Of a stretch of 64,000 nucleotides of DNA, positions 54,593-55,213 are shown piece after piece. The position numbers and the translations under genes were made by a program. The stretch is from Eledone cirrhosa. Its lineage: Eukaryota. The DNA lies in assembly GCA_964016885.1 (NCBI GenBank), contig OZ024745.1, forward strand, positions 105,524,001 through 105,588,000, in the 5' to 3' direction. Numbering within the stretch: position 1 is the first letter of the stretch; every line of letters begins with the position of its first letter. The notes under the pieces are model-generated. The model saw only the letters and a list, made by a program, of their open reading frames with translations. It searched no databases and had not been told where the DNA came from.

Positions 54593-55213
54593 GTAAGTAT
54601 GTATGTATACGTACATACATATATGTATACAGACGTACAGTAGCATGCATATATATTTATATATATACATACAGGTACACATACATATATGTACGTATCA
54701 GTTTAGCGGACGCTTATTATAACGCCCGCTTTGCCCGTTTGTAAACAAACTGACAGCCTGAATTTATGCCGTACGGTGTTAAGGCAACCACGTCACCTTT
54801 TTGTTCAACACTGACACAGGAACGATGTACTAGTTTCCAGCTTGTTAGCTATCATCAGCACCGTATACCCTTCTGCCAGATGGTTGAACGTTCGAAAGTA
54901 TATACTTTCCTTATGAAAATTAACGGCTGAGCAGCCTAATTTGCATATCGAGTGAGTTCAGTCGGCCAGGCGCACCGAAAACGATGAGTTGTAATAAAAT
55001 GAAAACGAAATTTCATTTCTCACTCTTAGTACGGCACTTACTTAAATGTAAGTATGTATGTATACGTACATACATATATGTATACAGACGTACAGTAGCA
55101 TGCATATATATATATATATACATACATACAGGTACACATACATATATGTACGTATCAGTTTAGCGGACGCTTATTATAACGCCCGCTTTGTCCGTTTGCA
55201 AATTAGGCTGCTC
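54593..55213 (-). mobile_element. Candidate retrozyme, diverged subfamily (~1.4 units)
   Basis: Homologous to 10925-11811; HHR at 54823-54863; inverted stub at ~55197-55213. Confidence 0.75.
54823..54863 (-). ncRNA. Type I hammerhead ribozyme
   Basis: Reverse complement reads CGGTG CTGATGA T AGCT AACA AGCT G GAA ACTAGT A CATCG. Confidence 0.85.

Follow-up and report, generated by a model that had tools for sequence, protein, structure and literature searches.

Subfamily changes keep the predicted RNA fold of a likely non-LTR retrozyme in the octopus Eledone cirrhosa

The window analysed here, a 64,000-nucleotide stretch of the Eledone cirrhosa genome (GCA_964016885.1, contig OZ024745.1, forward-strand positions 105,524,001 to 105,588,000), contains three insertions of one hammerhead-bearing tandem repeat, assigned to the subfamilies A1, B1 and B2 (Table 1). 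The 3' end of the A1 insertion, ...ACTTACAT, runs into (TA)n, and relatives of this copy reach 99-100% identity. At the A1 locus and in the B1 comparison copy the RNA strand is the minus strand; the latter has predicted cleavage after 11632 and after 11194 and an inverted piece at 11786-11811. No ORF of at least 130 aa extends across any of the three copies, an Rfam scan of the window gave 0 matches, with no model at the gathering threshold, and an inverted-repeat scan returned (TA)n only. By eye, a long inverted repeat with arms of ~220 nt occupies 55215-55640, adjoining the A1 copy at its 5' junction, and a (TA)n-rich tract of 4.6 kb lies at 19528-24120. The window also holds an ORF fragment with a GIY-YIG domain (12977-13582, Pfam 1.5e-5), an RT fragment (46552-47460, Pfam 3.1e-5, below the cut-off) and, at 32855-33846, what we take from its motifs to be a Penelope-like RT and nuclease piece.

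Table 1. Features of the three insertions, with window positions; helices are those of the predicted fold.
Feature	Position	Strand	Description
Putative retrozyme insertion, subfamily A1	54591..55202	-	~1.3 units (period ~455 nt), single hammerhead
Short inverted piece of the A1 element, 5' junction	55197..55214	+	Penelope-style 5' inversion, judged from sequence
Comparison insertion, subfamily B1	10918..11811	-	Two hammerheads, period 438
Third window copy, subfamily B2	58114..58625	+	Hammerhead 58135-58165; without the GAAAGTATATACTTTC palindrome
Type I hammerhead	54822..54864	-	Stem I ACGGUG/CAUCGU; core CUGAUGA (54858-54852)
G at position 11.1	54838..54838	-	Private mutation of the A1 copy; family state U·U
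Stem I extension, predicted	54803..54889	-	CCU/AGG past a UAU bulge, UGUCAG/CUGGCA, GUUGAAC/GUUCAAC
Hairpin P4 AAGGUGAC/GUUGCCUU	54781..54799	-	B type GCAAC/GUUGC: two changes to G-U and an indel
Helix P5, 5' arm GUACGGC	54768..54774	-	A2: compensatory C-G to U-A
Helix P5, 3' arm GCCGUAC	55029..55035	-	From the upstream unit in the A1 copy
Hairpin P7, loop UUUA	54733..54754	-	B to I1b: matched 4-nt insertions on both arms
Hairpin P8 AGCGGGCGUU/AGCGUCCGCU, loop AUAAUA	54705..54730	-	Most covarying helix: double changes in 4/10 pairs
Long helix P9, ~24 bp	54607..54698	-	54698-54675 pairs with 54630-54607, around a (UA)n hairpin
Helix GAGUGAG (55025-55019)/CUCACUC (54956-54950)	54950..55025	-	Encloses two hairpins; B2: compensatory A-U to G-C
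Interrupted hairpin AUGC..AUUAGGCU/AGCC..UAAU..NCAU	54913..54946	-	C·U mismatch at one pair in every I2-to-A subfamily
GAAAGTATATACTTTC palindrome, 16 nt	54894..54909	.	Invariant in 11/12 subfamily consensuses

In the A1 hammerhead (54822..54864), stem II is AGCU/AGCU with the loop AACA, followed by GAAA and a minimal stem III, C-UA-G, and cleavage is predicted after GUA, between 54828 and 54827. The core, the three stems and the GUA site are present in each unit, and 11 core positions carry 0 subfamily substitutions vs 53 private mutations. A sequence-only reading of the window had contrasted stem I of the B1 hammerheads, CGTTG/CAGCG (11194-11230, 11632-11668), with CGGTG/CATCG at 54822-54864, and had named a change of the core at N7 from C to U; both are found as given. 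The same reading described stem II as changing in its loop and its closing pair. The loop does pass from AAUA to AACA in the compared copies, but since AACA occurs in some U-G copies too, loop II is no clean separator of the two window types. The closing-pair change is copy decay and no subfamily trait: U10.1·U11.1 replaces the canonical G10.1-C11.1 in 703 of 717 units, and U-G at these positions is limited to 5 units, spread over four subfamily assignments. The stem III palindrome ACUAGU forms a 6-bp self-duplex in silico (-5.4 kcal/mol); stem III is too short to close as a monomer, and action as a dimer via ACUAGU would be expected, as it is for dimer-type hammerheads with a stem III of 1-2 bp and a palindromic loop (PMC4209133). 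By hand count, loop III is the palindromic AU in ~45 among 100 listed cores with a loop III starting in A or C, and one family among these has a non-palindromic AA loop III.

Outside the hammerhead, circular MFE predictions branch alike for A, B and I units (z -5.4 to -9.0), with the sense fold 15-43 kcal/mol more stable than the antisense, and a monomer or circle running from one cleavage site to the next is exactly the unit on which the predicted fold closes. The two P5 7-mers (54768, 55029), noticed earlier as retained GTACGGC/GCCGTAC and present in both compared copies, flank the cleavage site, so that their pairing requires a circle or a tandem. P8 corresponds to a second hairpin of the sequence-only reading, which is present but had been read on the plus strand; its apparent A·C mismatches are G-U pairs on the minus strand, where the helix is fully paired, with 11 and 10 contiguous pairs in the two types and the same AUAAUA loop. 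P8 folds at -14.7 kcal/mol on the minus vs -10.8 on the plus strand in one type and at -15.3 vs -7.3 kcal/mol in the other, an order reversed in the decayed second B unit (11516-11543; minus -8.5, plus -11.5). One of its pairs changes from C-G through an amplified G·G (I2, 25 sites) to G-C, another from A-U through A·C (I3a, 3 sites) to G-C. In the discovery set, P9 is the location of most array-shared A>G changes. The GAAAGTATATACTTTC palindrome, also said to be retained, is indeed found in both compared copies but is half deleted (8 nt lost) in B2, including the window copy at 58114-58625.

Exact matches to a 32-base core pattern number 25,114 in the 3.0 Gb genome (control 0), and 11,552 of them belong to the younger I2-to-A lineage. 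Units are 418-540 nt long (~430-470 nt as a tandem unit), a spread that comes mostly from the internal (TA)n, and base counts give a GC content of ~39%. Multi-unit sites make up 192 of 351 sampled, a non-random sample composed mostly of best hits to chosen subfamily queries, only the pattern listings being position-ordered; the orientation is minus-then-plus in 109 of the 192 and plus-then-minus in 5. B-type 3' ends fall in two 10-nt bins (115/142), ~215 and ~274 from the cleavage site and beside (TA)n, which places two insertion-end points ~55-60 nt apart, roughly opposite the cleavage site; A-type end counts, swamped by (TA)n matches, were left unused. The insertions are multimers that read across the cleavage site, lie within (TA)n microsatellites and in many cases have their 5' part inverted. 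They also include partial tandems and end extension; for Penelope-like elements, partial tandems, an inverted 5' copy, one-sided extension and a microsatellite bias are described (10.1101/2021.04.23.441226).

With a hammerhead in each unit, short low-GC tandems, no coding capacity and a predicted self-paired monomer, the element is, by its sequence characters, likely a non-LTR retrozyme, cleavage and circular RNA being predicted features. Its head-to-tail units leave no internal region between LTRs. Metazoan non-LTR retrozymes of coral, mussel and axolotl (Cervera and de la Pena 2020, PMC7229834) are likewise described as low-GC tandems with a type I hammerhead per unit, free of LTRs and ORFs, with a predicted highly self-paired circle and thousands of copies. 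The octopus unit (418-540 nt) lies at or above their upper size range, and cleavage and circles were demonstrated there, whereas the present family is known from genome sequence. Vertebrate non-LTR retrozymes, described as non-autonomous Penelope derivatives (bioRxiv 10.64898/2026.07.22.740005), are also tandem type I hammerhead units, and they co-occur with Penelope-like elements; the link to Penelope here is the anatomy of the insertions. The short stem III and palindromic loop are shared with the hammerheads of newt satellite 2 and of Penelope-like elements (PMC4209133). Unlike the types described there, the present family has U10.1·U11.1 in place of a conserved G-C, a long interrupted stem I and covariation throughout the unit.

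Further hammerhead-like families occur in this genome. A sister pattern occurs 14,747 times; the first 100 occurrences listed all belong to one 310-nt family, here family C, with stem II UUCU/AGAA, stem III ACGCGU and the U·U and UAU bulge of the main family. Homology of family C to the main family beyond the hammerhead was considered and rejected, as only two weak alignments were obtained, one over 46 nt (72%), which is the hammerhead, and one over 66 nt (68%). Family C is very young, with arrays of up to 16 nearly identical units (e.g. L082, L094-L115, L308-L318), and its circle folds better antisense than sense (-77.9 vs -67.8). Another hammerhead-like family, with a CUGAAGA core, has four window copies (36355-36383, 58082-58110, 63487-63515, 63567-63595), one of which abuts the B2 copy of the main family back to back; ~310 nt before one of them lies an ORF (35162-36043) with what is presumably a GIY-YIG-like motif, although it has no Pfam match. 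Two short inverted-repeat elements at 10430-10660 and 11860-12100, with hammerhead-like cores at 10541-10614 and 12005-12024, lie beside (TA)n and are possibly truncated Penelope ends. Six listed hammerhead copies at G000:C1:95640967-95658847 combine stem II AUGU/ACAU with an AA loop III, which is non-palindromic; their spacing in multiples of ~470 nt makes a third tandem family possible.

Clustering of 194 representatives of the main family gave 12 clusters of 3-25 sites (48 unassigned and excluded from the consensuses), and the two window types are the ends of this ladder of subfamilies. Searches confirm that the intermediate subfamilies are multi-copy. Within-array unit divergence, which by sequence comparison gives a rough order of the subfamilies, is 2.7% in B0, 2.4% in B2, 2.0% in B1, 1.8% in I1, 1.7% in I3, 1.2% in A1, 1.1% in I2 and 0.5% in A2. 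Among 480 units, stem I pair 1.3 is G-U in 310, U-G in 110 and A-U in 49; it is G-U in B0 and still G-U in A, having changed to U-G on the B branch and to A-U in I1, so that the stem I swap noticed between the window copies amounts to one double change on the B branch. U·U at this pair has only 146 exact copies, on B0, B1, B2 and I1 backgrounds; as a genuine intermediate subfamily it was rejected, since the mixed backgrounds and the paired siblings often adjacent mark these copies mostly as decay. A few U·U copies with mixed B0/B1 alleles could be a minor intermediate or recombinants. Arrays at the loci L299, L303, L304 and L280 mix B0 and B1 alleles, and L299 holds G·G and U·U stem I states at a single locus, which fits subfamily joining or recombination near the cleavage site. 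B2 accounts for 17 of 45 sites in the position-ordered sample. Contigs of sequencing run X4 on window 54560-55230 have mostly I1-type alleles, unlike X1 (library type unrecorded), and a single depth-8 contig of run X5 (organism B) on window 54762-55035 shows 11 substitutions and 2 gaps in ~270 nt, so that the other organism label may include a related element. Compared with two references, contigs of X1, X4 and X5 yielded no information on strand, ends, circles or editing, the TA-rich helix being passed over as repeat.

For a test of selection on the fold, the 12 consensuses, built from best-hit sets, were placed on a hand-set tree with parsimony nodes, each parent was folded alone as a circle and the substitutions of its child were classified; 32 slippage columns were excluded, two regions were re-gapped by hand, and the null consisted of type-matched random placement in 5,000 simulations. 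The 100 subfamily substitutions, read in sense, comprise 6 compensatory, 25 kept, 13 broken and 49 unpaired changes, the null 0.3, 24.4, 36.3 and 38.4, and neither the compensatory nor the broken count was reached in any simulation (0/5,000). Outside the hammerhead, 5 compensatory and 13 broken changes stand against 0.4 and 34.7 expected. The broken fraction is 0.30 in sense; in antisense it is 0.67, at a null of 0.68. In absolute numbers the antisense strand also departs from its null (26 breaks vs 35.9, P 0.008; double changes 3 vs 0.3), since a Watson-Crick pair on one strand is a pair on the other as well. With a CpG-matched null and an unconstrained fold, 5 compensatory and 15 broken changes are found vs 0.4 and 37.4, and the outcome is the same once single A>G changes are removed. 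An MFE test on 7 branches gives a summed z of -5.9 in sense vs -1.7 in antisense. Direct comparison of B1a and A1, one fold imposed on the other, gives 5 compensatory changes vs 0.9-1.0 expected (P 0.001-0.002) and 3-6 broken pairs vs 18-21.

Changes confined to a single unit of an array, which we treat as having arisen after insertion, show little strand bias, and they break pairs freely: among pairs hit, 802 of 1,077 unit-specific changes are breaks vs 13 of 44 subfamily changes (Fisher 1.4e-9). In ten real units, 98.5% of the cells in 16 helices are paired, with 8 double-change pairs, 7 of them outside stem I, vs 0-2 in slid controls; the structure was drawn from these same sequences, and P4 and P7 were left out as misaligned. 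Independent double changes number only 5-6, two of which are double CpG transitions. Mismatch states have been amplified as well, namely G·G in P8 (I2), A·C (I3a) and C·U throughout the I2-to-A types; an isolated mismatch can persist and be repaired later, and some helices, such as the GAAAGTATATACTTTC palindrome, are dispensable.

As subfamily changes keep the predicted fold far above chance, the whole fold, beyond the ribozyme, is likely under selection. The claims of the sequence-only reading that subfamily copies covary and that selection maintains the entire monomer as a conserved branched RNA agree with the tree-aware test, which supports them more strongly than a comparison of two copies could; the modelled signal extends outside the hammerhead and is far stronger on the hammerhead strand than on the other. 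Two of the supports offered for them, the palindrome and the closing-pair change, are invalid, and motifs retained without any variation do not amount to covariation. On these modelled folds, the element is very probably a non-coding tandem repeat whose subfamily changes keep the fold of the hammerhead strand over most of its length, likely by selection on the RNA; it is likely a retrozyme, spread via RNA by the enzyme of a Penelope-like element.

An unlikely alternative is that selection acts on the hammerhead alone; the remaining hairpins would then be fold-backs of DNA or cDNA whose symmetry is maintained, as Penelope-type copying proceeds, by template-switch repair of quasi-palindromes. 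The frequent inverted junctions (109/192 multi-unit sites), the growth of P7 by matched 4-nt insertions and the presence of some signal on both strands would suit it; such repair would, however, yield Watson-Crick pairs, whereas most kept changes give G-U, read as A·C in cDNA, only the hammerhead strand has a low broken fraction (0.30 vs 0.67), and double changes also occur in long-range helices with arms ~65 and ~220 nt apart. A purely mutational origin, in which a bias towards A>G at the RNA stage converts A-U to G-U and is scored as kept on one strand without selection, is very improbable: A>G changes are enriched (25/100 vs 134/1,622) and make up most of the 25 kept changes, but the null is type-matched, kept changes show no excess (25 vs 24.4), and the deficit of breaks and the excess of double changes persist without single A>G changes. 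The bias probably adds to the strand asymmetry and leaves the break deficit unexplained.

Equally hard to credit is a reading of the unit as the pseudo-LTR (pLTR) of an autonomous Penelope-like element, or as a DNA-level satellite, without a free RNA monomer and with a structure that serves the parent transcript. Hammerheads are indeed described in Penelope pLTRs, which also occur as tandem and inverted structures (PMC4209133, 10.1101/2021.04.23.441226), and pieces of Penelope-type ORFs lie near some copies. Yet the unit itself is without an ORF, its predicted fold closes from cleavage site to cleavage site, and at the two loci inspected the ORF starts mid-gene and is a neighbour separated from the unit by (TA)n. 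In 427 loci, a tblastn search for a Penelope-type ORF gave 25 rows, and no autonomous partner or partner pLTR was found.

The retrozyme reading implies a cycle in which the hammerhead strand of tandem copies would be transcribed, two hammerheads would pair through ACUAGU, completing the too-short stem III, and would cut after GUA, and the released monomers would likely be ligated to circles; priming by a Penelope-type reverse transcriptase would follow. What is seen statistically is that amplified variants keep base pairs and mutations in inserted copies do not.

Variants that occur in every array unit covering the position but at none of the nearest sites (up to 8), here called array-wide, should predate insertion. 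Among 104 of them, A>G accounts for 39 and T>C for 14 (binomial 8e-4), and 28 of the 39 A>G variants have a 5' U; among 1,633 unit-specific changes, A>G (172) and T>C (151) are similar in number. At held-out loci, fetched after the idea arose, A>G makes up 12 of 37 vs 51 of 548 unit-specific changes (Fisher 2e-4), and the ratio of A>G to T>C, 12 to 4 (p 0.08), makes the replication partial; a concentration of A>G in the long helix (13/14 helix events in the discovery set) did not replicate (1/4 held-out). In 19 sites of family C, 7 array-wide A>G events all fall at predicted paired positions, with no private T>C; three of the 7 concern one position on different backgrounds and could be recombinant. 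ADAR prefers 5' neighbours in the order U>A>C>G (PMC3113232). A tentative explanation, to which we give slightly less than even weight, is that ADAR edits the folded retrozyme RNA at UA steps and that the edits are reverse-transcribed, become subfamily markers and are kept or repaired, by way of visible mismatch intermediates, by selection on the fold. The excess may instead reflect RT or polymerase error bias, unrecognised minor subfamilies or selection for G-U. It bears on editing as a source of retrozyme RNA diversity, a question left open in PMC7229834. If the editing explanation holds, editing would be a heritable source of mutation for the elements and in vivo evidence that the predicted helices form, and the genome would contain a dated fossil record of a selfish ribozyme RNA that evolved under A-to-I editing by the host.

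Covariation among hammerhead families has been noted before (PMC4209133), and in the cave cricket satellite pDo500 (Martinsen et al. 2010, PMC2837043) compensatory stem changes and a free N7 were likewise read as constraint. There the non-hammerhead part served as the less conserved control; here that part holds most of the compensatory changes and, unlike in pDo500, the intermediates are ordered within one genome. In the main text of PMC7229834 structure comes from MFE prediction and the word covariation appears 0 times, and a term search of bioRxiv 10.64898/2026.07.22.740005 gave no structure or subfamily analysis. Our literature search, which covered listings, abstract openings and few subscription papers, returned no report of whole-monomer covariation or ADAR footprints in retrozymes; the family itself could already be listed in published supplements.

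The family is a further example of a known retrozyme class, and what is new is the ordered record of compensatory evolution together with a possible editing signature. As its intermediates survive as multi-copy subfamilies, the compensatory path, including the mismatches that amplify and those that do not, can be counted directly from ~25,000 copies. The family provides comparative evidence for constraint, on one defined strand, in the non-catalytic body of a metazoan retrozyme RNA, and it separates helices that matter from those that can be lost.
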